Numbered from the stretch's first letter, positions 10,756 through 60,055 are shown. The stretch is 64,000 nucleotides of DNA from an uncultured Verrucomicrobiae bacterium (GCA_963756185.1 CAVWMS010000001.1:11038-75037); one strand, 5' to 3'. Notes: a model not told the origin generated them from the sequence alone. Made by a program: numbers and translations.

Positions 10756-12143
10756 ATGAAGAAAATAGTTGTCATCGACGATGAGCGGCCGGTGTTGGCC
10801 GACGCTGCAGGCGCTGCTCGAGCGGCATGGGTATTCCGTGCAACTGGCCGGGACTGCGAGCGCGGGCCTCGGGCTCATCGAGAAGACGCAGCCGGAGCTG
10901 GTGCTCCTGGACCTGGGGCTGCCGGATGCGGCCGGGCCTCGAGACGCTGGCCAGGATCAGGCAGGACCATCCGGACATCGCGGTCATCATCATCACGGCG
11001 CAGGACTCGCTCAGCAATGCCATCGAGTCGATCAAGCTGGGCGCGTTCCATTTCATCTCGAAGCCCTACGCGCCCGAGGAATTGCTCAACGTCATCGTGC
11101 GCGCGCTCGAGCAGCGCGACCTGGTAAAGGACCGGGACCAACTGATGGCGAAGACGGCGGAGCTGGCGCGCCAGCTCGAGGAGGCGCAGATGCAGCTCGC
11201 GCCGACGGTCACCAGCCGGCGCATGCGCGAAATCCACGAACTGGTGGCGCGCGTCGCGCCGAGCGACGCAAATGTGCTCATTACCGGCGAGAGCGGCGTG
11301 GGCAAGGAAGTGGTGGCGAACCAGATTCACCGGCTCAGCACCCGGCAGGCCGGCCTGATGGTGAAGTTGAATTGCGCGGCCTTTCCGCAGAACATGATCG
11401 AGAGCGAGTTGTTCGGCTATGTGAAAGGGGCGTTCACGGGCGCGGCGAATGATTTTCCGGGGATGATCCACGAGGCCGCGGGCGGCACGCTCTTCCTGGA
11501 CGAGATCGCGGAGATGCCGCCGGATTTGCAGACCCGATTCCTGCGGGTGCTGCAGGACCGCGAGTATCGCTCTCTCGGCAGCACGAAAACGGTGAAGGCC
11601 GATTTCCGGCTCGTCGCGGCCACCAACCGGCCCGTCCAGGCGGCGCTGGCCGGCGGCGCGCTGCGGCAGGATTTGTATTACCGGCTCAAGACGTTCGAAA
11701 TGGAGATACCCCCGCTGCGGGAGCGGCGCGAGGATATTCCCGCGCTGGCGCTGCAATTCGCGCGCCGGTTCGCCGCGCAGATGAACAAAGGCGAGCCGCG
11801 CTTTTCGCCGGAGGCGTTCCGGGTGTTGATGGATTACAATTGGCCTGGCAACGTGCGCGAGCTGCAAAACGCGGTCGAGCACAGCATCGTGCTGTGCGAA
11901 AGCGGCTCGGTAATGCCGAAACATCTCCCACGCGAGCTGCGCCTGCCGGCGATCCTGCAGGAGGCCGCGGTGCAATCGATCAACGGCGGGGGGAACCTGA
12001 AGCTGGACGTGCGGGAACGCGAGGCGATCCTGCAAGCCCTGGCGCAATGCCACGGCAATAAAAAGAAGGCGGCGGCCGTGCTCGGCATCCACCGTCCGAC
12101 CTTGTACTCGAAAATGAAACGGTACGGGATCGAATTGAAGTGA
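10756..12143 (+). pseudogene. Sigma-54-dependent response regulator (NtrC family: REC + AAA+ + Fis-type HTH) with two +1 frameshifts in the receiver domain, at about 10795 and about 10925.
   Basis: MKKIVVIDDERPVL is in frame 1. TLQALLERHGYSV...LVLLDLGLPD is in frame 2. GLETLARIRQDHPDIAVIIITAQDS and onward is in frame 0. Downstream it is intact: GESGVGKEVVA, GAFTGA, ESELFGY, NWPGNVRELQN and a C-terminal HTH. Confidence 0.6.
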
Positions 12144-14966
12144 GCAGAAAGTTGCAGGCAGCGTCCCGGGCGGCGGCGGTCGATCAAACCGCGAAGACGG
12201 ATGCCCTTTCGCGGCACCGTGAGAAAGTGCTCGAGCACGCGGAGGCGCAACTGGCGCTGCAAGGCAAGGAAAGCCCGGCGGAGCTGCTGGCGCTTTACAA
12301 GCGGTTCCTGAAAATCGAGAACCACCGGCTGCGGCTCAAGCACAACGCGGGGGAAGGCGGGCGGGAAATCGCGCATCAGCGGGCCAGCCTGGTCGATATC
12401 GTACTGCGGCATTTGTTTGACGGCGCGGCGGCAAAGGCCGGGAGACGTCGATTTGCGCGAACTGTCGCTCGTGGCGATCGGCGGTTACGGGCGGGACGAG
12501 CTGAATCCTTACAGCGACGTGGATATCATGTTCCTCACTCGGCAAAGGGAAAGGAAGTGCCGTCGGAGTTGAACGAGGTCATCCAGATGATCCTCTACAT
12601 GTTATGGGACATCGGATTCAAGGTGGGTCATTCCACGCGGTCGATCCCCGGGGCGATCAAGCAGGCCAACATCGACATGCTTTCGAAGACGTCGCTGCTC
12701 GAGTCGCGCCACGTGGCGGGCAGCCGGGAGTTATTCGACGATTTCCGGCGGGAATTCGTGAAGCGCTGCGTGCACGGCTACGAGAAGGAATACATCCTGC
12801 AGCGGTTCGAGAACCAGACGGAGCGGCACGCGAAGTTTGGCGAGACGGTCTATATGCAGGAGCCAAACGTGAAGAACGGATGCGGCGGGCTGCGGGATTA
12901 CCAGAACCTGCTGTGGATCGCATTTTTCCGCGAGGAGATTGCCACCACGGCGGAGCTGGTGCAGCGGAAACTGCTTTCGGACATCGAGCGGCGCAGGCTG
13001 GATCGCGCCTACGACTTCCTGCTGCGGGTGCGCACGGAGCTTCACTATCTGAACAAGCGCGGCACGGACGTACTCAGTCTCGGTTTCCAGGGACAGGTGG
13101 CCAATAACTTCCGTTACCCGCAGAAGAACATCCTCAGGCGCACCGAGGCGTTCATGCGGGAGTATTACTGGCACGCGCGGGACCTCTATAACATCACCGA
13201 GATGGTGGTCGAGCGGCTGGGACATGGGATCGTCGACGCGAAGCCGGCGGGCCTGCTGCACTTGTTCGGCAACGGCAAGAAGCAGAGTGGAGTATTTTGA
13301 CGGATTTTATTCCGAGGGTGGATTTGATTTACGCGGAATCGCGCGACGTGTTCACCCAGGATCCCTACCGGATGATGCGCGTTTTCCAGCACGCGCAGCA
13401 GCGGCATCTGCGGCTTTCGTCGGAGCTGCAGCAGTTGATCCGGCGCAAGCTGCCGCATGGTGGGCCGGACATTCCAATACTCGCGGGCGGCGCGCGAGAC
13501 ATTCCAGGCCATCCTGTCGCGCAAAGGGGAGGTGGGGCGGGTGCTGCGGATGATGCACCAGGTCGATTTTCTGGGGAGATACATTCCGGAGTTCGGCGAC
13601 CTGACCTGCCTGGTGCAGCACGAGTTTTTCCACCGGTACACGGCGGATGAGCACACGCTGGTGTGCATCGACAAGCTGGACTCGCTGATCGATACCACCA
13701 ATCCCAAGCTGCAGGATTACCGGATATCTGTTCCAGAAGCTGGAGGACCCGTACGTGCTCTATCTCGCGCTGCTGCTGCACGACACGGGCAAGGCGACCG
13801 GGGCCCGGTATCACGCGGAGGCGAGCGCGCTTTACGCGCAGCGGGTGGCGGCGCGGCTGCAACTTAGCTCGGAGCGCCGAAAGGCGCTGATCCTGCTGGT
13901 GGACAATCACATGACGCTTTCGAACGTCGCGCAGCGGCGCAACCTGGACGACGCCGCCACGATCCAGGAGTTCGCGGACGTGGTGAAGACGCAATCGAAC
14001 CTCGACGCGCTGATGCTGCTGACTTTGGCCGACGGGCAGGGGACAGGGGACGAGAATTGGTCGGACTGGAAGGAATCGCTCGTCTGGCAGTTGTACCGCT
14101 CGACCACGCAGTTTCTCGAGGATGGCGCTTCGTTTTTCCGCCAGCGCCGCATCGAGCGCGAGGAGCTGCGCAAGCGGGTCGGCGCGCTTTTGCCGAAGGA
14201 TTTCGAGGAGGAGGTCGAGGCGCATTTTCAATACATGCCGGATTACTATTTCCAGACCAATCCGGCGAACGACATCGCGGCGCACGTCCGGCTCTTCCGC
14301 GCATTCCTCGAGCGGGAATCGAAGGGGCTCGAGAACGCGCTCACGCCCGTGGTCAAGTGGGTGCCGCATGCCGACCAGGGGCATACGGAAATGTGGATAT
14401 GCACCTGGGACCGCAAGGCGCTGCTCACGCGCATCGCCGGCTCCCTCTCCGTGGCGCACCTGAACATCCTGAGCGCGGATATCTTCACGCGCGGGGACAG
14501 CCTGGCGCTGGATTTCTTCCGCGTGTGCGACACGAAATTCCAGGCGGTGACGGACCAGCGGGACATCGCGGCGGTCGAGAAGATGCTCAAGCAGGCGCTC
14601 TCGCAGGAGGATTTCGATTTTCATCCGCTGCTGCAAAAGGCGAAGAAGCGCCCGGGATTTCATTTGTCGCAGGAGCTCGATTTTCCGACACGGATATGGA
14701 TCGATAACGGCGCGCACCCGGTATACACATTGGTGGACATCCAGACGCCGGACCGGTTGGGGTTGCTGTATGACTTGCTCAGGGCATTCGCGGATTCGCG
14801 GGTGAACATCGTCCTTTCGCGCATCACCACGGAGAAAGGCGCGGCGATAGACAGCTTCTATGTCACCGACGTGGATGGCAGAAAGATCCGCGACCAGGAA
14901 CATATTACGGAGATACAAAAGGCATTGAAGCAGGCCGCCCCCGGCGTGCCGCTGAAGGAAAGCTGA
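12140..14966 (+). pseudogene. glnD: [Protein-PII] uridylyltransferase / uridylyl-removing enzyme GlnD, interrupted by at least 5 frameshifts at about 12420, 12540, 13290-13330, 13480 and 13740.
   Basis: The nucleotidyltransferase motif ELSLVAIGGYGRDELNPYSDVDIMFL sits in a different frame from its flanks. The HD-domain ([19 protein letters not shown]...[13 protein letters not shown]) and C-terminal ACT segments lie in three different frames. Five ORF pieces tile the gene. Confidence 0.6.
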
Positions 14967-14973
14967 GTCTGTC

Positions 14974-16548
14974 TTAGTTATTTGGCGTGCCGGTTTTTAC
15001 CTCGATGATGTCGTGGGGGGCGGATTCCTTCTGGCCGGCGGGGGTGATTCGGGCGAAGCGGGCGCGGCGGCGCAGCTCGACCAGGTTCGGGGCGCCCAGA
15101 TAGCCCATGCCGGATTGGACGCCGCCGACGAGTTGGGTCATCACGGCATCGAGCGACGGGGAAACCTCCTTCAAGGCCTCGACCCCTTCGGCGGCCACCT
15201 TGCGCGTGGCATCCTTTGTATGGCCGTAGCGCGCGGCGGAGCCCGCCTTCATGGCGGCCGGGCTGCCCATGCCGCGGTATTGTTTATAGGGCTTGCCGTT
15301 GATCTCGATGATCTGGCCCGGGGCTTCCGGGCATCCGGCCAGCAGGCCGCCGCAGATCACCGCGTGCGAGAGCGTGAGCGCCTTTACGATGTCGCCGCTC
15401 TTGGCGATGCCGCCGTCGGCGATGATGCTCACGCCGGCCTCTTGCGCGGCCTTGCCGCAGACGTAGAGCGCGGTCAATTGCGGAATACCGACGCCGGCGA
15501 CAATGCGCGTGGTGCAAATCGATCCCGGCCCCTGTCCCACCTTGATCGCGTCGGCGCCGCAGCGGGCGAGGTACTCGACAGCGGAGGCGCTGGTCACGTT
15601 GCCCGCGATGATCGGCAACTCCGGGAACGCGGCGCGAATGAGCCGCACGGTGTCGCCGACGCCCTTGCTGAAGCCGTGCGCGGTGGAAATCGCGACCGCA
15701 TCGACACCGCGGTCCACCAGCGCGCCGACGTGCTGGACGATGCGATTCTGGTCGAGTTCGCCGGTCGAGTTGCGGGTCGCGGAGACTGCCGCGCCGCAGA
15801 TGAGCCGGAAATTCGCGTCGCGGGCCGGCTTGAGCGGCGCGGCCTTTTCCTGGCTGATGCGCTCGATGTCGCTGAGGGTAAAGAGCCCGCGCAGCCGGTC
15901 CTGGTCATCGACCACCAGCAGCTTGTGGATGCCGATGTGCTCGTTGAAAAACTTGTCCGCGCGGGCGATGGGGTCGGGCTGCAATTCCCTTTCGGCGATG
16001 GTCTGGACCTGCTCGCGCGGCATCATCGCGTCGCTGACCTTGCGCGCGGCGTAGCGCGGGCGCACCACGTGGCCCGGCAGCAGGCCGAGCAATTTCCCGT
16101 GATCGTCCACGATGGGAAAGGTGCTGAAGGCAAAACGCCGTTCATCGATGAGCGCCAGCACGTCGCCGATGAATTGATCGGGCGACACCTTGATCGGCTC
16201 CTGGATGAGGCCATGGACGTGATATTTTACCCGGGTCAGCTCGGAGAGCTGCTGCCGGTCGGACATATTGTAATGGATGAGCCCGAGGCCGCCGTTGAGC
16301 GCCATGGCGATGGCCATGCGCGATTCGGTGACGGTGTCCATGTCCGCCGAGATGATGGGGATTTGGAGATGGAGCCGTTCGGCGAGCGCGGTTTCGAGGT
16401 TTGAGTCGCGTGGGAGAATTTCCGAGTACTGCGTGGCGAGCGTCACGTCGTCGTAGGTGAGCGCCACGCCCTGCTGCGCGGGAAAAAAGGAATCCGCCGG
16501 CTGATAGAAGGCGTCGTCAACAGCGGCGCATCGAGAGGAGTCTGCCAT
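14974..16548 (-). CDS. guaB: Inosine-5'-monophosphate dehydrogenase.
   Basis: CBS pair plus catalytic loop IIAGNV...[16 protein letters not shown]...GSICTTR, at 524 aa. Confidence 0.9.
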
Positions 16549-16637
16549 GGTTTATCTTGGGGAAGCGGGGGGCCGGTGGCAAGGCCCAAAAGCCGCCTTG
16601 AACGGTCTCGCGGCAGGAGAAAAGGGGGTGAAAGTGG

Positions 16638-16707
16638 CTTGATTCACCTTGATTGACCTTGATTGACCTTGATTGACCTTGATTGACCTTGATTGACCTT
16701 GATTCTG
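16638..16707. repeat. Tandem 10-bp repeat (CCTTGATTGA)x7 in the divergent guaB / subtilase-operon intergenic region.
   Basis: The sequence reads gcttgattca ccttgattga x5 ccttgattct. It is a perfect head-to-tail array with no spacers. Confidence 0.85.
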
Positions 16708-16713
16708 AATAGG

Positions 16714-16734
16714 TGCCATATGGCGCATATGGCA
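16714..16734. promoter_or_regulatory. Double palindrome TGCCATATGGCGCATATGGCA (two CCATATGG half-sites). Candidate operator upstream of the subtilase / cysteine-rich protein operon.
   Basis: The symmetry is read directly. It lies 7 bp after the tandem repeats and about 230 bp upstream of the 16961 start. Confidence 0.4.
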
Positions 16735-16960
16735 TGCAGTTGCCCTTCGCTTTCTGCCGTTTGGGCGGCGGTAATTATCGCGTCTGGCGCTTTCATTTGT
16801 GCCGGGGCTTTTCCTCACCTTAGCAAATTCAGTGTCGCGTGGGTTAGAGGTTTTCGGCGGGGCCTCAGGAGGTGAGACATTTTGTCCTGGTGGTTTTTGC
16901 CTATTTCAATTTTTTCAGGGGAAAAGCATTGTTGAGAATCGACGTTAAACTTTATGGGCT

Positions 16961-17854
16961 ATGAGGACTTCCCTCGACTTGAGCGGCTTGACTTCGCTGA
17001 TGAGGCGAACGGCTGGCCGCAGGGGGGTCATCATCGGGCTCGTGGATGGGCCTGTGGATATGGGAAATCCGAATTTCGCAACTGAGGCGATTCGCGAAAT
17101 GGCCATGCATTCGCCAGGTCAGACGGGCGCCTGTAATTTTCCCCAGAGTAATTCGTGCCGGCACGGCACATTCGTGGCTGGCATTCTCGCCGCCAAGCGC
17201 GGCTCCGATGCGCCCGCGATATGTCCCGGATGCACTGTGCTGTTGCGCCCGATCTTTTCGGAGGAAGAATCATCGGATTCAATGCCCGCAGCTTCTCCGC
17301 GCGAACTTGCCGACGCCATCGTGGAGGTAGTGCAGGCAGGAGCCAATATTGTGAATCTCAGTTGTCAACTGCCGCGTGGTTCGGCAGGTGCGGAACGAGA
17401 CCTCGACGACGCCTTCAATTACGCCGCATCGCGCGGCGCAATTTGCGTAGCCGCGGCGGGCAACGAAGGATCGCTCGGAAGTTCCGCCATCACAAGGCAT
17501 CAATGGGTGATTCCGGTGGCCGCCTGTGACCGAACCGGCCATCCTACGGAAGGATCGAACCTGGGACATTCGATAGGCCGCCGCGGGTTGCTTGCTCCCG
17601 GCGACAGCATTCGCAGCCTCGGGGCCGAGCACGAAGACTATCCCGTGAGCGGCACCAGCGCGGCTGCGCCCTTTGTTGCCGGCGCGGCGGCGTTGCTTTG
17701 GTCGGAATTTCCCGAAGCAAAAGCGGTGGATGTCTGGCAGGCTCTCAACCTGATCCAAGTTTTGCGGCGCACCAGTGTGGTGCCGCCCCTGCTTGATGCA
17801 TGGCGATCGTATCAATGGCTGAATTCGCATTTTGGCAGGACACAAACCCTATGA
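16961..17854 (+). CDS. Subtilisin-like serine protease (peptidase S8) consisting of the catalytic domain only, with no signal peptide.
   Basis: Asp-box GVIIGLVDGPVD, His-box HGTFVAGILAA and Ser-box GTSAAAPFVAGAAALL. The N-terminus is hydrophilic. Confidence 0.8.
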   Translation: MRTSLDLSGLTSLMRRTAGRRGVIIGLVDGPVDMGNPNFATEAIREMAMHSPGQTGACNFPQSNSCRHGTFVAGILAAKRGSDAPAICPGCTVLLRPIFSEEESSDSMPAASPRELADAIVEVVQAGANIVNLSCQLPRGSAGAERDLDDAFNYAASRGAICVAAAGNEGSLGSSAITRHQWVIPVAACDRTGHPTEGSNLGHSIGRRGLLAPGDSIRSLGAEHEDYPVSGTSAAAPFVAGAAALLWSEFPEAKAVDVWQALNLIQVLRRTSVVPPLLDAWRSYQWLNSHFGRTQTL

Positions 17855-18069
17855 AAAAGGGAGGCAGAGCAACTGTATCCGAGCCCAGCAGTCCTCAGCC
17901 GCACGTCGTTCGCCTGCCTGGCTGGATCGTGAAGGAGGAGGTTGGACTCGGAGACGTCATCAAACGGGTCACCCGCGCGATTGGGATTCCGACCTGCCCG
18001 GGCTGCCAGCGTCGCGCCGACACACTTAACCGCTGGGTAAAAATCACCCCTGGCGACCACAAAACATAA
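17851..18069 (+). CDS. Small protein (73 aa) translationally coupled to the subtilase through an ATGA overlap.
   Basis: MKKGGRATVSEPSS...IPTCPGCQRRADTLNRWVKITPGDHKT. No recognisable domain. Confidence 0.45.
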   Translation: MKKGGRATVSEPSSPQPHVVRLPGWIVKEEVGLGDVIKRVTRAIGIPTCPGCQRRADTLNRWVKITPGDHKT

Positions 18070-18101
18070 ACACCAAAAATAATAACAAGAAAACCGACAT
18101 C

Positions 18102-19031
18102 ATGACAACAGCCACCGAGACCAATGAACCCGCCGACGCCGTCCAGGCAGCCAGCGACTCCAACCCGGTTACAGCCGCCGCGCCGGCAACTGCGCTTCCA
18201 AGAGCAGTTTCGCCCCCGGGCTCGTGTCCAACCTGCGCCACGGCGCCGGCTGGCGCCCGGGCAAATTCCTACGTCTGGGCAATTGGAAAGATCGAGCCAC
18301 AATTCATGGGCATTGCGGAGGAGAAGGAATACGCGCAGGTCGTCGGTGGTATTGAAACGGAGGGTCTTACCAAGCGCCAGGTCTTCTCCAAGGTGCTCAA
18401 AAATCCAAATTATCATTATTTAATGCGGGATGGTCTCGCTTGGATCATGAGAATTGGCGGGCAGGAGGTCTATGAGTTAAAGCCGCGCTACGAAAGCGAT
18501 TTTCATCTCCTCGTAGAGTCGTTTCAACCTGAGGTCGACTCAAACGCGCTTGACGCCGTTATTGGGACGAACGTCGGGATGCCGCGTCAAGGGCTACGCG
18601 GCGCACCGTTGCTGCCCGTCGTGAGAGTCCACCAGATTTATACCTTTACTAAAGAACATTTGATTAAGGGAATTCCAGGCGATAAAAAATCCCATACAAA
18701 AGAGTTCAACGCCTCTGCCCACGAGGTGCTCAATCGGATTCTGGCCTTTACGGAAAATCTCGGCAACACCGATTGCGACCGCGCGAAGAACTGGATCGCG
18801 TTGCGCAGTCCGTACCTTTACAAAATCGTGGCGGAATGTCATGGACGCGACTTGGAGTTGGCCAGGATAGAGTGCCGCCCCCACCCGCTTTCCGGAGCCC
18901 GCAACCTTGTCGACCTATTGCTCCGATTTGAGTCGCGAGGAAAGGAGTTTGGCGAGAAATATCGCGTTATTCTGGACATGACTGACGCCCTCCCGTTCCA
19001 AGTTTCCCCATTTGAGCGTTACTACGCTTAA
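18102..19031 (+). CDS. Hypothetical protein (309 aa) in the subtilase / cysteine-rich protein operon.
   Basis: Long ORF with lower GC. Ala/Pro-rich N-terminus with CPTC. No recognisable domain. Confidence 0.55.
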   Translation: MTTATETNEPADAVQAASDSNPVTAAAPATALPRAVSPPGSCPTCATAPAGARANSYVWAIGKIEPQFMGIAEEKEYAQVVGGIETEGLTKRQVFSKVLKNPNYHYLMRDGLAWIMRIGGQEVYELKPRYESDFHLLVESFQPEVDSNALDAVIGTNVGMPRQGLRGAPLLPVVRVHQIYTFTKEHLIKGIPGDKKSHTKEFNASAHEVLNRILAFTENLGNTDCDRAKNWIALRSPYLYKIVAECHGRDLELARIECRPHPLSGARNLVDLLLRFESRGKEFGEKYRVILDMTDALPFQVSPFERYYA

Positions 19032-19035
19032 TAAT

Positions 19036-20247
19036 ATGAACATGAGAATACCGCAATTCACCGCTGAACTGGCGCTGTCTTCCCCACGAAACTGGACTAA
19101 AGGGTTCGAAGTCGCCGAGTACGGCCCCAAAAGATCGACCATGCACTATCGCGCCGCTGGCTTTCGGAAGGCAGGGCAAGGCTCGCGGGGGGTCGTGCCG
19201 GCGCAGGACGGATGTGTTACATTGGGTGGGCAGATTTATTGCCCGGTGGTAGTAGGAAACCCGACGGCGTGTCCTCCCGGCACTTTCGGAATACCCCCAA
19301 ATTGCCAGTCCCTGCCCGCTTTTCCGCATTGTCCAATCGGGCAAACGAATTGTAATCCATTTGGAATACTACCTACGATGTGTACGAACCTTCAGACGGA
19401 TTCGAACAATTGCGGAAGCTGTGGAAACCAATGTAAGAACGGCCAGACGTGCCAAGACGGAGCTTGCGCCTGTCCAGGCGGGAAACCCCTCAATAGCTTG
19501 CAGAATTGCGGAACCTGCGGGCGCACCTGCACCGCCCCCTCGGGTGGGACCGCTTCCTGTGCTAACGGAAGCTGTAACTGGGTCTGCAACAGTGGCAGCG
19601 GCTACAGTAACTGCACCGGCCACAGCTGTACGAATACACAATCTGACCGGAACAACTGCGGCTCCTGTGGGTACATCTGTTCACAACACGTACCACAGAA
19701 TTCGACCGCGACGGGATGTACTAACGGACATTGCAACTGGCAGTGCAACAGCGGGTACACGGACCAAAGTGGGAAATGCATTCAAACGTGTCCGCAAGGC
19801 GATACCAGTTGCGGCGGGGCCTGCGTGAATCTTCAAACTGACCGGAACAACTGCGGCTCCTGTGGGTATAACTGTTCACAACACGTCCCGCAGAATTCGA
19901 CCGCGACGGGATGTACAAAGGGGCATTGCAACTGGCAGTGTAACAGCGGCTTTGTGGACCAAAACGGAAAGTGCGTTCGATCGTCAGGAGGCTGCGCTCA
20001 GGGTTACGAGAGCTGCGGAAGCGGTTGTTGTCCTGACGGAACGTGCTGTGACACCGTCTGCATGACATCTTCCGACGATACATGCTGCGGCAATGGGAAT
20101 GTTGCCACCGGGGATCAAATCTGCTGCGGCGGTGCCGGCTGTTCGACTGACGGTTGCTGCCAGACCGAGCTTGGATATACGTGCTGTGATCCCTGGGTGT
20201 GCTGCGGTGACGGCACTTGCGCTCCTGATAGCGATTCATGCGATTAA
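19036..20247 (+). CDS. Cysteine-rich protein with multiple Stig1-like D-x-x-N-C-G-x-C-G-x-x-C repeats. Paralog 1.
   Basis: LQTDSNNCGSCGNQC, TQSDRNNCGSCGYIC and LQTDRNNCGSCGYNC. N-terminal MNMRIPQFTAELAL with no Sec signal. About 17% Cys. Confidence 0.65.
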   Translation: MNMRIPQFTAELALSSPRNWTKGFEVAEYGPKRSTMHYRAAGFRKAGQGSRGVVPAQDGCVTLGGQIYCPVVVGNPTACPPGTFGIPPNCQSLPAFPHCPIGQTNCNPFGILPTMCTNLQTDSNNCGSCGNQCKNGQTCQDGACACPGGKPLNSLQNCGTCGRTCTAPSGGTASCANGSCNWVCNSGSGYSNCTGHSCTNTQSDRNNCGSCGYICSQHVPQNSTATGCTNGHCNWQCNSGYTDQSGKCIQTCPQGDTSCGGACVNLQTDRNNCGSCGYNCSQHVPQNSTATGCTKGHCNWQCNSGFVDQNGKCVRSSGGCAQGYESCGSGCCPDGTCCDTVCMTSSDDTCCGNGNVATGDQICCGGAGCSTDGCCQTELGYTCCDPWVCCGDGTCAPDSDSCD

Positions 20248-20277
20248 CAAAAATAGCTCCTTACTACTCCCGTTGAT

Positions 20278-22098
20278 ATGAAGATGACGGTCCCTGGATT
20301 TTTTGCCGAGTACGGTCTCGAGGGTGCCACCCGCCATTACCTGACGCTTGGCTCGGAGGAAACAGGGGGTCCCGGTTGGGATCTTGCTATGGCGACGAAC
20401 GTCTACCGAACGATGGCCGGCATTTCTGAGGCCGGCAATGTCTACGATCCCACGAGGCCAGCCGTGCGCCGCGATGGTCGTGGTTCGGGCTGCGTCGGCG
20501 GACCACCCTATATGCCATGCCTCAAGCAGGGAAGTCAGCCGGTATGCGCCGATGGGATTTGGGGAGGTGCCGGTGCTCCGCAGGGAACCCTCTGCTGGTC
20601 GCAATATCCGGAGATGGGCTACCAGGGGATTTGCAGTGGTGGCGGCGCGCCCGGAGGGAGAGGCGGCCTACCTCCCTCCCCTGGGTATTGCGACCCGTGC
20701 CCAACGGGGACAACTCTTTGCATCTCCGGAAACACCGGAGTTTGCTGCCCGGGCGTAGCGGAGTGTGAGAGAGGGAACTGCCACTGCCCCAATGGGGAGG
20801 TATTCTGCAACTCACAGTGTGTAGACACCCAGACCGACCCGAGGAACTGCGGGTTCTGCGACAAAGCGTGCCAGGCTGGACAGGTCTGCTGCAGCGGTTC
20901 TTGCACTGACATCAGCAGTGATAGTAACAACTGCGGAGCTTGCGGTAGCACATGTCAGCAGGGGGACGGAACGTGCTGCGGCGGTCGATGCTGTCCGGAG
21001 CGTTACGGGACCTGTTGTAACGGCCAGTGCTGCCCGGACCCCTTCTTTTGCTGCGGTAGTTCCTGCTGTTCCAACGGAGAGCTCGGCGGTGAGCCGCAAG
21101 CCTGCTGCAACGGCAGCTGCCAGCCCCAGGACGAGCAGCACTGCGGTTTTTCCTGCCAATCGTGCACAGGAGGCCAAACCTGCCAGCTTGATCCCTCGCA
21201 GGGCTATCACGGTTATGCATGCCTTTGCTCAAGTGGGGAAACACTCAGCAATGGTCTGTGTTGCCCATCAGGGCAGACAAACTGCAACGGCAATTGCGTA
21301 GCCCCGCCGGGCGCCGGCGCTCTTAGTAGCAACAGCAATTTCATGCTCTCGAACAATTGCGTGAGTATAGCGGGTCCGAATGGCAGTCTGAAAGTATCAT
21401 TGCTGGCTGGAACGGAGGATTTGGTTTCAGAAAATGGATTCTCGTTTCAGCTGAACGGGTTTCCTCCACCGCTGACGCCTACGTCACCGAATGGGTGCCC
21501 TTCCTCTGCTGATTTTTGCTGCATGGCTCCAACTGGAGTTTGCATAATGCAATATATTATCCGAGTTAGTGGGAACAATGTTTCTCCTTGGATTCAATAC
21601 TTTCAAAACAGCGGAGTGGAAAATCCGAACAACGACCCGTTTGCCACGCTGCCTGCCGGGAAGGCGAACACCCTTCCTGCCGGGTGGGCTCTCGAAATCA
21701 CATTGGAAAACGACGAGAATGGGAATGTCGATGGGATAATCCTTAGCGTCATAGACAACACCGGGCACACGGTTGGCTGCGCTGACCAAGGGCAGACAGG
21801 TTCCTGCCAACAAATGCCGATGCCGGTGGATCCCAATTCTGGCCTGCCACTCTTGTTCGCAAATCTAGCTTTTTCGGCAGTCGCGGTCGCTCTCCCGGGG
21901 AGTAGCGAGGCTAAGTTCACGTCTGGGGGCGGATGCATCACCTACGAAGTTTCAGAGGGGCAATTATGTGAGACGCAGGATAATTGCACGAACTTCGATG
22001 CGGGTACAACTGAGCAGTCAAACGCTTCCTACGGTGCCTTGAGCGCCACGTGTGGCTCCTCCTTGAGTCAATCCGTAACCACTTCGGATGCGTCCTAG
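20278..22098 (+). CDS. Cysteine-rich Stig1-like repeat protein with a C-terminal domain shared with the 22395 gene. Paralog 2.
   Basis: TQTDPRNCGFCDKAC and ISSDSNNCGACGSTC. The C-terminal ...GFSFQLNGF...ITYEVSEGQLC...YGALSATCGSSLSQSV aligns with the C-terminus of paralog 3. N-terminal MKMTVPGFFAEYGL. Confidence 0.65.
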   Translation: MKMTVPGFFAEYGLEGATRHYLTLGSEETGGPGWDLAMATNVYRTMAGISEAGNVYDPTRPAVRRDGRGSGCVGGPPYMPCLKQGSQPVCADGIWGGAGAPQGTLCWSQYPEMGYQGICSGGGAPGGRGGLPPSPGYCDPCPTGTTLCISGNTGVCCPGVAECERGNCHCPNGEVFCNSQCVDTQTDPRNCGFCDKACQAGQVCCSGSCTDISSDSNNCGACGSTCQQGDGTCCGGRCCPERYGTCCNGQCCPDPFFCCGSSCCSNGELGGEPQACCNGSCQPQDEQHCGFSCQSCTGGQTCQLDPSQGYHGYACLCSSGETLSNGLCCPSGQTNCNGNCVAPPGAGALSSNSNFMLSNNCVSIAGPNGSLKVSLLAGTEDLVSENGFSFQLNGFPPPLTPTSPNGCPSSADFCCMAPTGVCIMQYIIRVSGNNVSPWIQYFQNSGVENPNNDPFATLPAGKANTLPAGWALEITLENDENGNVDGIILSVIDNTGHTVGCADQGQTGSCQQMPMPVDPNSGLPLLFANLAFSAVAVALPGSSEAKFTSGGGCITYEVSEGQLCETQDNCTNFDAGTTEQSNASYGALSATCGSSLSQSVTTSDAS

Positions 22099-22394
22099 AA
22101 TTCTACAAGCCAGTTTTGGCGTGCCTATGTTGGGCTTCGAAATCGCCCCCTATTGCAGCATTAAAAAAGGAATAAACCGTGTTCAATCCACTTGCTCCCG
22201 TCTGGCGAGACACCGCCATTGGTCACTACACGTATTTTACGAATGGAGAGGAAAATGCCTCCCCTATTTGAAGGATGCCCAATTGCACGAAAACAAAGGT
22301 TACTATGACAATTACCGCGGAGAACAATGAACTGACAAGCGCCCTCCAGTCGGACGCCAAAATCACACACTAAGACGACCATTAGAACAATTAT

Positions 22395-23570
22395 ATGAAC
22401 CTGCCCCAATTTACGGCCGAGTTTGCGCTTTACCGGTCAAAGAATGTCTACCGGGAAAATGGCGCTGCCGCCGAAATGACGGATTGGGACCCGCAAATAC
22501 TACCGGCGGGACCGTCGCAGCATCCTGGTGGCGGTTTTGGTGGCGGTCCTCAGGTCCATTGTGTGGCACCCTATTCACAATGTGGAAATGTCTGCAAGGA
22601 TCTGAGTACGGATGCCGCTAACTGCCATGAGTGCGGCAATGTTTGCGCAGATGATATGTGCTGCATAGGGGGTAGATGCACGACGGTTGACACCAATTAT
22701 GATAGTAATAACTGTGGAGACTGTAATAGCAAATGCCCTTTGATTGCGCCATTTTGCTGTAGCGGTGAATGCCTCACCATCGAAATGGCTGAAAAGTGCC
22801 AGAATTGTGGCACCAATTGCCCGACCGGGTATTACTGCGGTGGCGATGGCTACACATGCATCGCATGCCCGGCGGGACCAGATCCCATACAATCGCCGGG
22901 AAGCAATGTTAATTATATAATGTACAACTCATGCTCGCCCATTGACCAGCTGAGTTATTCTATGTATGTCAATAAGGATCTCGTCTCGGGATCGGGCGGT
23001 TTTTCTCTGCAATTCAATAATTATACAAAGGCGACGGGTTACGAAAATACGGTCATTCAGCTTATTTTCCACGTAAGCGACCAAATTTTGGCCCATATAC
23101 AATATCCGGGAGGCACCCCTGATGGAATTGATCATGATTGGCAGAAGAGCTTTTCAAAAATTACATTGGAGAACGATACGTTGCCCGCTCATTACACATT
23201 GGGGGTTGCTCTCAGTAATGATGGCAACGGGAATATTAATGGAGCTGCCTTTACGGTTGAAGATAATAATGGGAAGAGTTACACAATCTCTGCCCCTGCT
23301 TCTGCCTTTCCTTCCGGGAAGTATCTGTATCCCATTTCCGAATTCCAAGCGAATCTTGTCGGGTATGGCGGGGGCGCGACCGCGAGCTTTTCTCCCGGAG
23401 GAAAGGCAACAATAACTTACTCCTCGGAGGGACAACTATGCGTAGAAGGGGCTAATCCAAATTGTACAGGCAGTGATCTTATAACGGATGAAAAAGCGAA
23501 TACCGGATATGGAGAATTGAGCAGTTGCTGTGGTGGGTCTTTAACGCAGCCGGTATTTATTACTTCTTGA
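22395..23570 (+). CDS. Cysteine-rich Stig1-like repeat protein, paralog 3. Lower GC.
   Basis: MNLPQFTAEFAL N-terminus, LSTDAANCHECGNVC and YDSNNCGDCNSKC. The C-terminal ...GFSLQFNNY...ITYSSEGQLC...YGELSSCCGGSLTQPV is paralogous to the 20278 protein. Confidence 0.65.
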   Translation: MNLPQFTAEFALYRSKNVYRENGAAAEMTDWDPQILPAGPSQHPGGGFGGGPQVHCVAPYSQCGNVCKDLSTDAANCHECGNVCADDMCCIGGRCTTVDTNYDSNNCGDCNSKCPLIAPFCCSGECLTIEMAEKCQNCGTNCPTGYYCGGDGYTCIACPAGPDPIQSPGSNVNYIMYNSCSPIDQLSYSMYVNKDLVSGSGGFSLQFNNYTKATGYENTVIQLIFHVSDQILAHIQYPGGTPDGIDHDWQKSFSKITLENDTLPAHYTLGVALSNDGNGNINGAAFTVEDNNGKSYTISAPASAFPSGKYLYPISEFQANLVGYGGGATASFSPGGKATITYSSEGQLCVEGANPNCTGSDLITDEKANTGYGELSSCCGGSLTQPVFITS

Positions 23571-23709
23571 TTTCAAAACGGAAGATATCGAGGATGTCGT
23601 GAATTCCGGGGGGCAAGGGGGGTTCATGAGAAAGTTGAAGAGTAAGTGCGAGTACACGCTGGCGCGCGGGTGGGCAGACTTCAATTCGAAACGCTTTGGG
23701 AGGGCTGGC

Positions 23710-25912: not shown

Positions 25913-25960
25913 GTTCAGGTTCAGGTTTAAGTTCAAGTTCAAGTTCAGGTTCAGGTTCAA
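25913..25960. repeat. Tandem hexamer (GTTCAR)x8 flanked by about 34-bp direct repeats (AAGGGGGAAGGC..CCCTGATTTYGGGGGCTAGG), lying within the operon between the Pro-rich gene and exbB.
   Basis: The sequence is gttcag gttcag gtttaa gttcaa gttcaa gttcag gttcag gttcaa. The direct-repeat copies are at 25870..25903 and 25959..25994. Confidence 0.8.
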
Positions 25961-38305: not shown

Positions 38306-38382
38306 CTTTGCGTCTTTGCGCCTTTGCGTGAGTCCCTCATCCAGAAGGGATTAGCCTCACGCAAAGGCGCAAAGGCGCAAAG
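38306..38382. promoter_or_regulatory. Long imperfect hairpin (27-bp arms, one mismatch, 23-nt loop) built from three CTTTGCG(C/T) units, in the divergent sdhC / 38582 intergenic region.
   Basis: The left arm is ctttgcgtctttgcgcctttgcgtgag. The loop is tccctcatccagaagggattagc, with its own tccc/ggga mini-stem. The right arm is ctcacgcaaaggcgcaaaggcgcaaag. Confidence 0.6.
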
Positions 38383-42826: not shown

Positions 42827-42894
42827 AGCCCTGCCCAATCTCAAGATTGGCATGCTTCCCGGATTCAGAGTAATCGAAGCTGGCGGCATGCCTG

Positions 42895-43365
42895 CACTTG
42901 CACTTTAACTTTCACTTGAACTCCCATGAACAAAGATCTGATTTTATTCGACCACGAGAAGCTGACGGTTTACGGGAAATCCTTGGAATTTGCCGCCTGG
43001 GTAACCGATATTCTCGAACTCATTCCCAATTCGCTCTCCGTCCGGGACCAATTGGACCGAGCGTCCACCTCGATGCCATTGAACATCGCGGAGGGCACTG
43101 GAAAATTCACCGTTCGGGACAAGTGCAGGTACTATGACTCGGCTCGAGGGTCCGCTCTCGAATGTGCCGCGTGCCTTGACGTTTTGGTTGTGAAGAAGAT
43201 CGTGGCTCCGGACCGTATTGGGCCTGGCAAGGAGCTCTTGCGTCCGATTGTTGCGATGCTTGTGGGTCTTATTAAGTCGATTTCACCGCGGAGGGTTTTC
43301 GGCAGTCCCGTGCGCCGGAGCAGCGAAGAGAAGTTCAAGTGAAAGTTAAGGAGTAAGCACAAGTG
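42895..43365 (+). mobile_element. IVS-like cassette: a four-helix-bundle (23S rRNA intervening-sequence protein family) gene bracketed by imperfect terminal inverted repeats, inserted between livG and livF.
   Basis: The left inverted repeat is CACTTGCACTTTAACTTTCACTTGAAC at 42895..42921. Its reverse complement matches GTTCAAGTGAAAGTTAAGGAGTAAGCACAAGTG at 43333..43365 (17/17 core identity). The CDS start and stop lie inside the inverted repeats. Confidence 0.4.
42926..43342 (+). CDS. Four-helix-bundle protein (23S rRNA IVS protein family).
   Basis: 138 aa. ...EFAAWVTDILELIPN...DQLDRASTSMPLNIAEGTGKFT...YYDSARGSALECAACLDVLV... is typical of this family. Confidence 0.65.
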   Translation: MNKDLILFDHEKLTVYGKSLEFAAWVTDILELIPNSLSVRDQLDRASTSMPLNIAEGTGKFTVRDKCRYYDSARGSALECAACLDVLVVKKIVAPDRIGPGKELLRPIVAMLVGLIKSISPRRVFGSPVRRSSEEKFK

Positions 43366-60022: not shown

Positions 60023-60055
60023 CGAAATTCGAAATTCGAAAATCGAAATTCGAAG
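60023..60055. repeat. Short tandem heptamer (CGAAATT)x4.5 upstream of murJ.
   Basis: The sequence is cgaaatt cgaaatt cgaaaat cgaaatt cgaag. Confidence 0.7.

Follow-up and report, generated by a model that had tools for sequence, protein, structure and literature searches.

A CTTGATT decamer array upstream of guaB belongs to a dispersed repeat family in Verrucomicrobiota intergenic DNA

Genes and features around guaB

The window analysed here is a stretch of 64,000 nucleotides from an uncultured Verrucomicrobiae bacterium (GCA_963756185.1, CAVWMS010000001.1:11038-75037). The closest relatives of its guaB gene are annotated as Chthoniobacteraceae, and the source is a Chthoniobacteraceae MAG. 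The guaB gene (14974–16548, minus strand) encodes an IMP dehydrogenase with a CBS domain (Pfam IMPDH, 6.8e-124). To its left, the region of glnD, coding for the PII uridylyltransferase (12140–14966), is divided into two ORFs, 12140–13300 and 13755–14966, with a gap between them, which points to a frameshift, an error in the sequence or a gene that is split. To its right, an operon of five genes is found on the plus strand. The first gene encodes an S8 subtilase (16961–17854; Pfam Peptidase_S8, 2.5e-25) and is followed by a gene for a protein with PatG_D and PatG_C domains (18102–19031; Pfam), a member of a rare family that comprises 11 proteins in 5.8 billion. The last three genes (19012–20247, 20278–22098 and 22395–23570, together spanning 19012–23570) encode Stig1-like cysteine-rich proteins. 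Two of these share the N-terminal motif PQFTAE(L/F)AL, and the third (20278–22098) includes only the related VPGFFAEYGL. The spacer that separates guaB from the S8 gene is 412 bp long, and the divergent intergenic setting described in the original prediction is thereby confirmed. Within this spacer lie a tandem array of CTTGATT decamers (16638–16704, plus strand), which begins 89 bp from the start of guaB on the opposite strand and ends 256 bp before the S8 gene, and a dyad (16714–16734).

The array, the dyad and the operon are all part of a segment of about 7.1 kb (16607–23709, defined by synteny, its left edge uncertain by ~30 bp) that is missing from close relatives (L112–L121 and L216–L220). 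In the relatives, guaB directly follows exbB-exbD, a tonB-like gene and a 79-aa zinc-ribbon gene, with a spacer of 55–120 bp. In the window these genes are found at 23.7–26 kb, so the intervening ~7.1 kb is lineage-specific; homology to the relatives restarts on the right at about 23711. The GC3 of the five operon genes is 0.47–0.63, versus 0.79–0.89 in the flanking genes. Together with the absence from close relatives, this low GC3 shows that the operon was horizontally acquired, and the view of it as an acquired operon is borne out.

The order of the S8, PatG-like and Stig1-like genes recurs in two other loci (L123 and L125), and the gene set was observed in Dongiaceae-like and other contigs. 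Homologous clusters are present in other phyla, one of them adjoining a phage-type integrase; neither a decamer array nor a dyad was found upstream of these clusters. A search for relatives of the PatG-like protein yielded only a 47%-identical locus, which has no array. The island itself includes no integrase, transposase or regulator gene, and no inverted or direct partner array was found at its right edge. The S8, PatG-like and Stig1-like proteins may form an uncharacterised system for the processing or secretion of cysteine-rich proteins.

The guaB promoter and insertions upstream of it

A block of the form CTTGCCAC-N17/18-AAGAT(A/G)-N4-ATG is kept in all guaB relatives compared (L112, L115, L116, L213–L216 and L219–L220), and blastn matches window positions 16553–16583 to L115–L121. 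On the minus strand of the window this conservation marks a putative guaB core promoter (16554–16582), composed of TTGCCA (16577–16582), 17 nt, CAAGAT (16554–16559) and 5 nt before the ATG. The conserved CTTGCCAC block is probably the guaB core promoter, with transcription starting at or near the ATG, and the guaB transcript looks leaderless. A consensus scan of 16400–17100 detected no sigma-70-type promoter, which is weak evidence since the scan also misses the conserved guaB block. The array is situated 54 bp upstream of the conserved guaB -35 element, not between the promoter hexamers, and occupies about -90 to -156 from the inferred guaB start.

None of the guaB relatives carries the array. 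Those whose guaB is 88–91% identical have the same core promoter and no array, which argues that the array is dispensable for guaB expression. Homology to the relatives fades ~30 bp before the array, which may accordingly be native to this region or have come with the island. In L213–L215 (guaB 89% identical), a gene for a Y1-transposase of the IS200/RAYT-like kind, with REP-like hairpins, is inserted in divergent orientation just upstream of the guaB promoter. Comparison with window positions 16549–16640 places this insertion at the same spot as the 7-kb island, where a small TTCAAGTTCAAG duplication is also present. Since two lineages carry independent insertions there, the region upstream of guaB is a repeated insertion point.

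The array and the adjacent dyad

Sequence reading, TRF and a core count agree that the array consists of seven CTTGATT cores at an exact period of 10 bp, in accord with the seven head-to-tail 10-bp units that had been predicted; the unit given there, CCTTGATTGA, is the same repeat with a shifted register. The sequence reads gtgg, CTTGATTCAC, five copies of CTTGATTGAC, a last CTTGATT and ctgaatagg, and then enters the dyad half TGCCATATG. The spacers are CAC after the first core and GAC after each of the next five, and the ctg that follows the seventh core ends the array. GG precedes the first core, and the left flank (...gaaaagggggtgaaagtgg) includes no homopolymer run of 5 or more. TRF reports a period of 10, 6.7 copies, 98% matches and a score of 127, making this the top-scoring tandem repeat of the entire window. 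CTTGATT occurs 8 times on the plus strand of the window, versus ~1.6 expected, and seven of the eight copies are inside the array. All three frames of the plus strand are stopped by TGA across the array, and the minus-strand ORFs of 50–88 aa that cover it extend into guaB and are implausible as genes.

The five identical GAC units indicate that the guaB-upstream copy was recently lengthened by replication slippage, and hence that its copy number is evolutionarily labile. An assembly artefact is unlikely, because similar arrays are present in many independent assemblies. No second copy of the locus was found in sequence collections by exact-protein look-ups (for guaB, for the S8 protease and for P0001, which is 100% identical). 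The remainder of the spacer (16708–16960) had no match in the fetched array loci, and Rfam covariance models had none at E ≤ 1 in 16400–17100.

The dyad is a perfect inverted repeat, TGCCATATG-gcg-CATATGGCA (16714–16734; 9+3+9 bp), that starts 9 bp past the last core. It had been described as a double CCATATGG palindrome; the perfect 9-bp inverted repeat is there, but CCATATGG is present once only, the second copy being GCATATGG. The 21-bp element has a single occurrence within the window. The window holds seven distinct perfect inverted repeats as strong as this one (eight listed entries, two of which overlap), so the dyad alone is not remarkable; a chance placement of such a dyad 9 bp from the array is nevertheless unlikely. 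As an RNA hairpin it has no extra stability (z about -0.8 versus shuffled controls). Dyads were found beside 3 of 56 other arrays of the family described below, which is the background rate, and the dyad had no match in the metagenome contigs scanned. The dyad was therefore rejected as a feature of the array family, and the proposal that array and dyad form one module is not upheld. Nor can the window define the CCATATGG regulon that a genome search had been expected to reveal, as the motif occurs there once. The dyad is a separate, locus-specific element, possibly an operator of the acquired operon.

A family of CTTGATT decamer arrays in Verrucomicrobiota

Species-representative genomes, one per species, were scanned for three CTTGATT cores placed 10 bp apart, whatever the spacer sequence between them. 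At least 111 loci matched, compared with ~0.3 expected by chance (our own estimate, for 596 Gb, both strands and 21 specified bases). Among the matches listed, 57 of the 111 are in Verrucomicrobiota MAGs, and single Verrucomicrobiota genomes contribute 9, 7, 7, 6, 4 and 4 contigs. We take Verrucomicrobiota to account for no more than a few percent of the species that the searched collection covers.

The Verrucomicrobial arrays include 3–8 units, and 38 of the 57 mix different spacers around perfect cores, the apparent core conservation being inflated by the requirement of three perfect cores for inclusion. Their spacers follow a rule: 142 of 143 units have A or G at position 9, and 140 of 143 have C or G at position 10. 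Arrays of other phyla have no such rule and are mostly homogeneous. The two bases that precede the first core, which the search pattern left unconstrained, are R in 52 and S in 51 of 56 arrays, and the ten bases preceding the first core nonetheless form no recognisable unit. As R-S holds both in the spacers and before the first core, the unit is best written [A/G][C/G]-CTTGATT-N. Family arrays start sharply on one side and decay gradually on the other. An A/T homopolymer is found at the gene-proximal edge of 17 of 56 arrays (~30%), versus 5 of 56 at the other edge.

The guaB-upstream array is a member of this dispersed ([A/G][C/G]CTTGATTN)n family in Verrucomicrobiota intergenic DNA. It has seven cores at 10 bp, where the family minimum is three, N-R-S spacers and GG before its first core; it is intergenic, and a gene on the opposite strand, guaB, lies to its left at 89 bp, inside the 25–300 bp range of the family. 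The A/T tract at the left, gene-proximal edge is the only family trait that it lacks. A flanking block (class A) that is conserved in related MAGs is absent from the window (nhmmer), and Rfam gave no match at gathering score in 18 related array loci. We found no description of these arrays in the literature on the motif, on decamer repeats or on Verrucomicrobial promoter motifs, and the Verrucomicrobial CTTGATT family is apparently undescribed so far.

Period, position and turnover of the arrays

A period of 10 is the commonest for short arrays in the Verrucomicrobial loci even when CTTGATT arrays are excluded (21 arrays, 5.3 per 100 kb). The non-Verrucomicrobial loci include 4 arrays of period 10 (1.1 per 100 kb) and have no peak at 10. 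Several other decamers recur across different loci and genomes, and in related MAGs the intergenic DNA is a mosaic of many short arrays.

Arrays of the CTTGATT family are nearly always intergenic. Their orientation was compared with that of neighbouring genes, which were called by a crude ORF and GC3 heuristic and counted as neighbours only at 200 aa or more. When the array is read as CTTGATT, its left neighbour is on the opposite strand in 28 cases and on the same strand in 10 (binomial p = 0.005), at a median distance of 141 bp between array and start codon. Right neighbours lie at medians of about 550–600 bp and have no clear orientation bias (8 on the plus and 16 on the minus strand). By this family rule of a divergent gene on the left, the likely partner of the array studied here is guaB and not the acquired operon. 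The array had originally been linked to the operon as well; the family analogy, and the homologous operons that have neither array nor dyad, point away from that link.

The partner genes are unrelated to one another and include rpsA, ffh, fbaA, a gene for an arginine-pathway enzyme, glycoside hydrolases and an NtrC-like regulator; they therefore constitute no coherent regulon. No common neighbouring gene family was found, with only two orthologous pairs among 100 neighbours. The NtrC-like locus is shared by two related MAGs (98% aa identity) that have 3 and 4 units, with the cores kept and the spacers different, in an intergenic region where conserved segments are otherwise interspersed with replaced ones. 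No array was found upstream of NtrC-like orthologues at 87–94% identity. The differing unit number, and the absence of arrays from these orthologues and from the guaB relatives, indicate that the arrays are evolutionarily short-lived. Two metagenome contigs with a 94%-identical NtrC-like gene (L138 and L139) both begin 330–362 bp upstream of it and cover the same upstream sequence.

Other decamer arrays and short repeats

In eleven loci from peat and soil Verrucomicrobiota MAGs, a conserved block of ~90 nt (...GTGTAAAT.GTTCATGGAAAGGCACTTGGGTTGATTTGCCGCAAAAATGCGCAAAAG...) was found at a fixed distance after the CTTGATT array. The block is also present in two further loci of such hosts and as a second copy in one of the eleven (L072), and one genome includes at least 6 copies. 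It has no Rfam match and is absent from the window. The block may represent a non-coding module in dispersed copies that acts either as an sRNA gene or as a mobile cassette with a promoter. In six loci of Chthoniobacter sp. cluster4_bin.57, the array is inside a different dispersed element, with CTTAA decamer repeats on one side and a REP-like, hairpin-rich block (CCGGTGGTGTCGCTGCGCTCAACCACCGG...GGGATGCCTCCGGCATC) on the other.

Decamers with the same 7-nt core as the guaB-upstream array and a different spacer rule, C-CTTGATT-T[A/C]C, were observed in ~50 viral contigs (among L140–L212) of 85–160 kb and a GC content of about 0.39, mostly from one sample. These arrays of 3–15 decamers (e.g. L190, 2428–2524) are inside long non-coding regions and all end in CCTTGTYTGGAG. 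Their copy number varies between related contigs, and some of the genomes include two or more arrays. They may serve a phage group as iterons, with a role at the origin, in packaging or in regulation.

Short tandem arrays are typical of the source genome in general. The window includes an inverted pair of arrays in a long intergenic region, (CTTTGCGY)x3 at 38306–38329 and (CGCAAAGG)x3 at 38360–38382, and arrays of the CTTTGCG type recur in two related MAG loci (L003 and L102). Eight copies of GTTCAG are found at the annotated 5' end of exbB (25913–25959) and would encode (LN)n if translated. Five TGCACT-like units (42893–42922) stop three bases short of a start codon, and (CGAAATT)x4.6 (60023–60054) lies between two plus-strand genes.

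Interpretation of the array

Our best reading of the array, to which we give a probability of roughly 45%, is a helically phased, predicted binding platform for a host protein, with the array recently expanded by slippage. Each 10-bp unit would be the binding site for one subunit of a host DNA-binding protein, which could be a winged-helix or ribbon-helix-helix regulator or a nucleoid-associated protein, and the subunits would line up head-to-tail on one face of the helix. The array would thus serve as an upstream platform for the promoter of an opposite-strand gene 25–300 bp away, here guaB, whose transcription it might influence, and the guaB-upstream copy would have been lengthened lately by replication slippage. 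In favour of a platform, a conserved core with degenerate but rule-bound flanks, strict phasing, polarity and a bias towards the nearby divergent gene are hard to obtain by slippage alone. A classical regulon is argued against by partner genes of unrelated function, by the fast turnover of the arrays and by guaB orthologues that have no array; a nucleoid-associated protein, or a factor acting generally upstream of promoters, is a better fit than a dedicated regulator.

A serious rival, though somewhat unlikely in our judgement, is that the array is a neutral or selfish repeat, that is, a functionless young product of slippage, at a rearranged spot upstream of guaB, in genomes with a mutational tendency to short intergenic tandem repeats. 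The five identical units agree with such an origin, and the combination of near-identical units and a missing A/T tract also matches a young neutral slippage product. The mosaics of short arrays in related MAGs and the several others in the window, the gain and loss of arrays between relatives, the dispersed non-coding modules with conserved flanks in which some arrays sit, and the independent insertions upstream of guaB in two lineages are in keeping with it as well. Slippage alone, however, does not explain the peak at period 10. It also leaves unexplained the core and N-R-S spacer that are conserved across genomes, the R-S that comes ahead of the first core, and the bias in strand and distance towards the neighbouring gene.

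That the array acts as the promoter and operator region of the acquired operon is improbable. TTGAC(C) and TTGATT would then be reiterated -35 boxes for rightward transcription and the dyad a repressor operator. The units do contain TTGACC or TTGATT, the dyad lies 9 bp past the last core, where a -10 element or start site would be expected, and the operon must have a promoter within the 256 bp before the S8 gene. Yet no acceptable -10 element is found at 16–19 bp from any unit, and the GAC spacers that create TTGAC are present in only 6 of 143 family units. Family arrays show no bias towards a right-hand gene that runs in their own direction, the homologous operons have neither array nor dyad, and the island includes no regulator gene.

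It is very improbable that the array represents arm-type or subterminal sites for a recombinase or transposase at the left end of the 7-kb island. The array is within ~30 bp of the left edge of the segment, and a homologous operon in another phylum adjoins a phage-type integrase; but the island carries no integrase or transposase and no partner array at its right edge, the homologous islands have no arrays, and most family members are found by housekeeping genes with no sign of mobile DNA.

We give hardly any credence to intrinsic curvature, in which the 10-bp phasing would bend the helix and stimulate the adjacent promoter with no specific protein involved: the exact helical period and the site upstream of a promoter would suit it, but CTTGATT decamer arrays are near the median of random decamers in a wedge model (d/L 0.90–0.99), where a phased A-tract control was in the top 1.4%, these values being indicative only. 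A sigma-54 upstream activating sequence was rejected, as -24/-12 promoters (TGGCAC-N5-TTGCW, 70–150 bp downstream) accompany 2 of 56 arrays versus ~1.2 expected, and none is found at the guaB-upstream copy.

The binding platform may also be part of something wider, although we regard this extension as rather doubtful. In such a "decamer code", helically phased 10-bp arrays would be read by oligomerising or DNA-wrapping proteins that organise promoter-upstream DNA genome-wide. Its hosts may include Verrucomicrobiota, perhaps other soil phyla and some large phages, with the guaB array as a freshly expanded site. RS-CTTGATT-N may be the most prominent of several families, others being AGGCACGATT, TTTCACCTGG, CCATCTGCGT and GGTTTGACTG.

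To our knowledge, almost nothing has been reported on transcriptional regulation in Verrucomicrobiota. If the arrays are platforms, they are a common and easily recognised cis-element in a major, poorly studied soil phylum, and a 70-bp perfect array could be used as bait for the binding protein. If they are mere slippage products, they still reveal that this lineage has an unusual preference of its own for repeats with a 10-bp period. Repeats of this kind will break up assemblies and lead gene callers astray. In addition, the locus shows how a housekeeping promoter, that of guaB, and an acquired operon come to share a fast-evolving upstream region.

Comparison with known repeat systems

The original prediction had likened the array to iteron-like or multimeric regulator sites. 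Of these, a multimeric binder is the best reading and is favoured by the family evidence; the iteron part does not hold, given the 10-bp unit, the many chromosomal copies and the missing rep gene. Replication iterons are tandem direct repeats bound by a multimerising protein. They are typically 17–22 bp long and occupy a single locus of the replicon, beside a rep gene and an AT-rich unwinding region or DnaA boxes. None of these traits is seen here, where the unit is 10 bp and its neighbours are guaB and the S8 protease gene.

Contingency loci resemble the array in having a perfectly repeated, slippage-prone tract near a promoter, and the 3 versus 4 units at the NtrC-like locus of the family are reminiscent of them. 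Contingency tracts are usually composed of 1–7 bp units within a reading frame or in the gap that separates the -35 and -10 elements, where a change in length switches expression. The tract here, in contrast, is intergenic and 54 bp upstream of the guaB -35 element, and no promoter spanning it was found. The contingency-style switching that had been suggested is not supported by this geometry, in which 10-bp steps keep the helical phase.

Ribbon-helix-helix arrays such as R1 parC, bound by ParR, and the omega heptads of pSM19035 are contiguous short direct repeats over which small dimeric proteins bind cooperatively as a coat. The omega heptad, WATCACW, is similar to AATCAAG, and in both cases the short repeats are contiguous. 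The parC and omega arrays adjoin their own partition or regulator genes on plasmids, whereas the copies described here are chromosomal and dispersed, and no partition ATPase, adaptor or omega-like gene was found flanking the guaB-upstream array.

A likeness to sites of the OmpR/PhoB family is also apparent. Tor boxes are decamers at 10-bp spacing that are bound head-to-tail by a winged-helix response regulator, and such direct repeats at a period of 10–11 bp upstream of a promoter are matched by the guaB-upstream array with its period of 10. Sites of this family usually comprise 2–5 boxes at one or a few coherent operons, while the arrays here have 3–8 units at many unrelated genes. This functional unrelatedness of the partner genes argues against a narrow OmpR/PhoB-type regulon. 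The binding of tor boxes by TorR is documented (PMC9239176).

The TTTTGAT heptads of the Vibrio cholerae ctxAB promoter are sites for ToxR, ToxT and H-NS and are thus bound by activators and by a nucleoid protein; strains vary in how many heptads they have, which is reported to influence the activity of the promoter (bioRxiv 10.1101/2021.05.14.444153). The ctxAB period is 7 bp and not 10, the heptads belong to a single locus and not to a genome-wide family, and their binders are known. What the two have in common is a set of head-to-tail repeats with a TTGAT-containing core, placed upstream of a promoter, and the ctxAB locus, too, was horizontally acquired.
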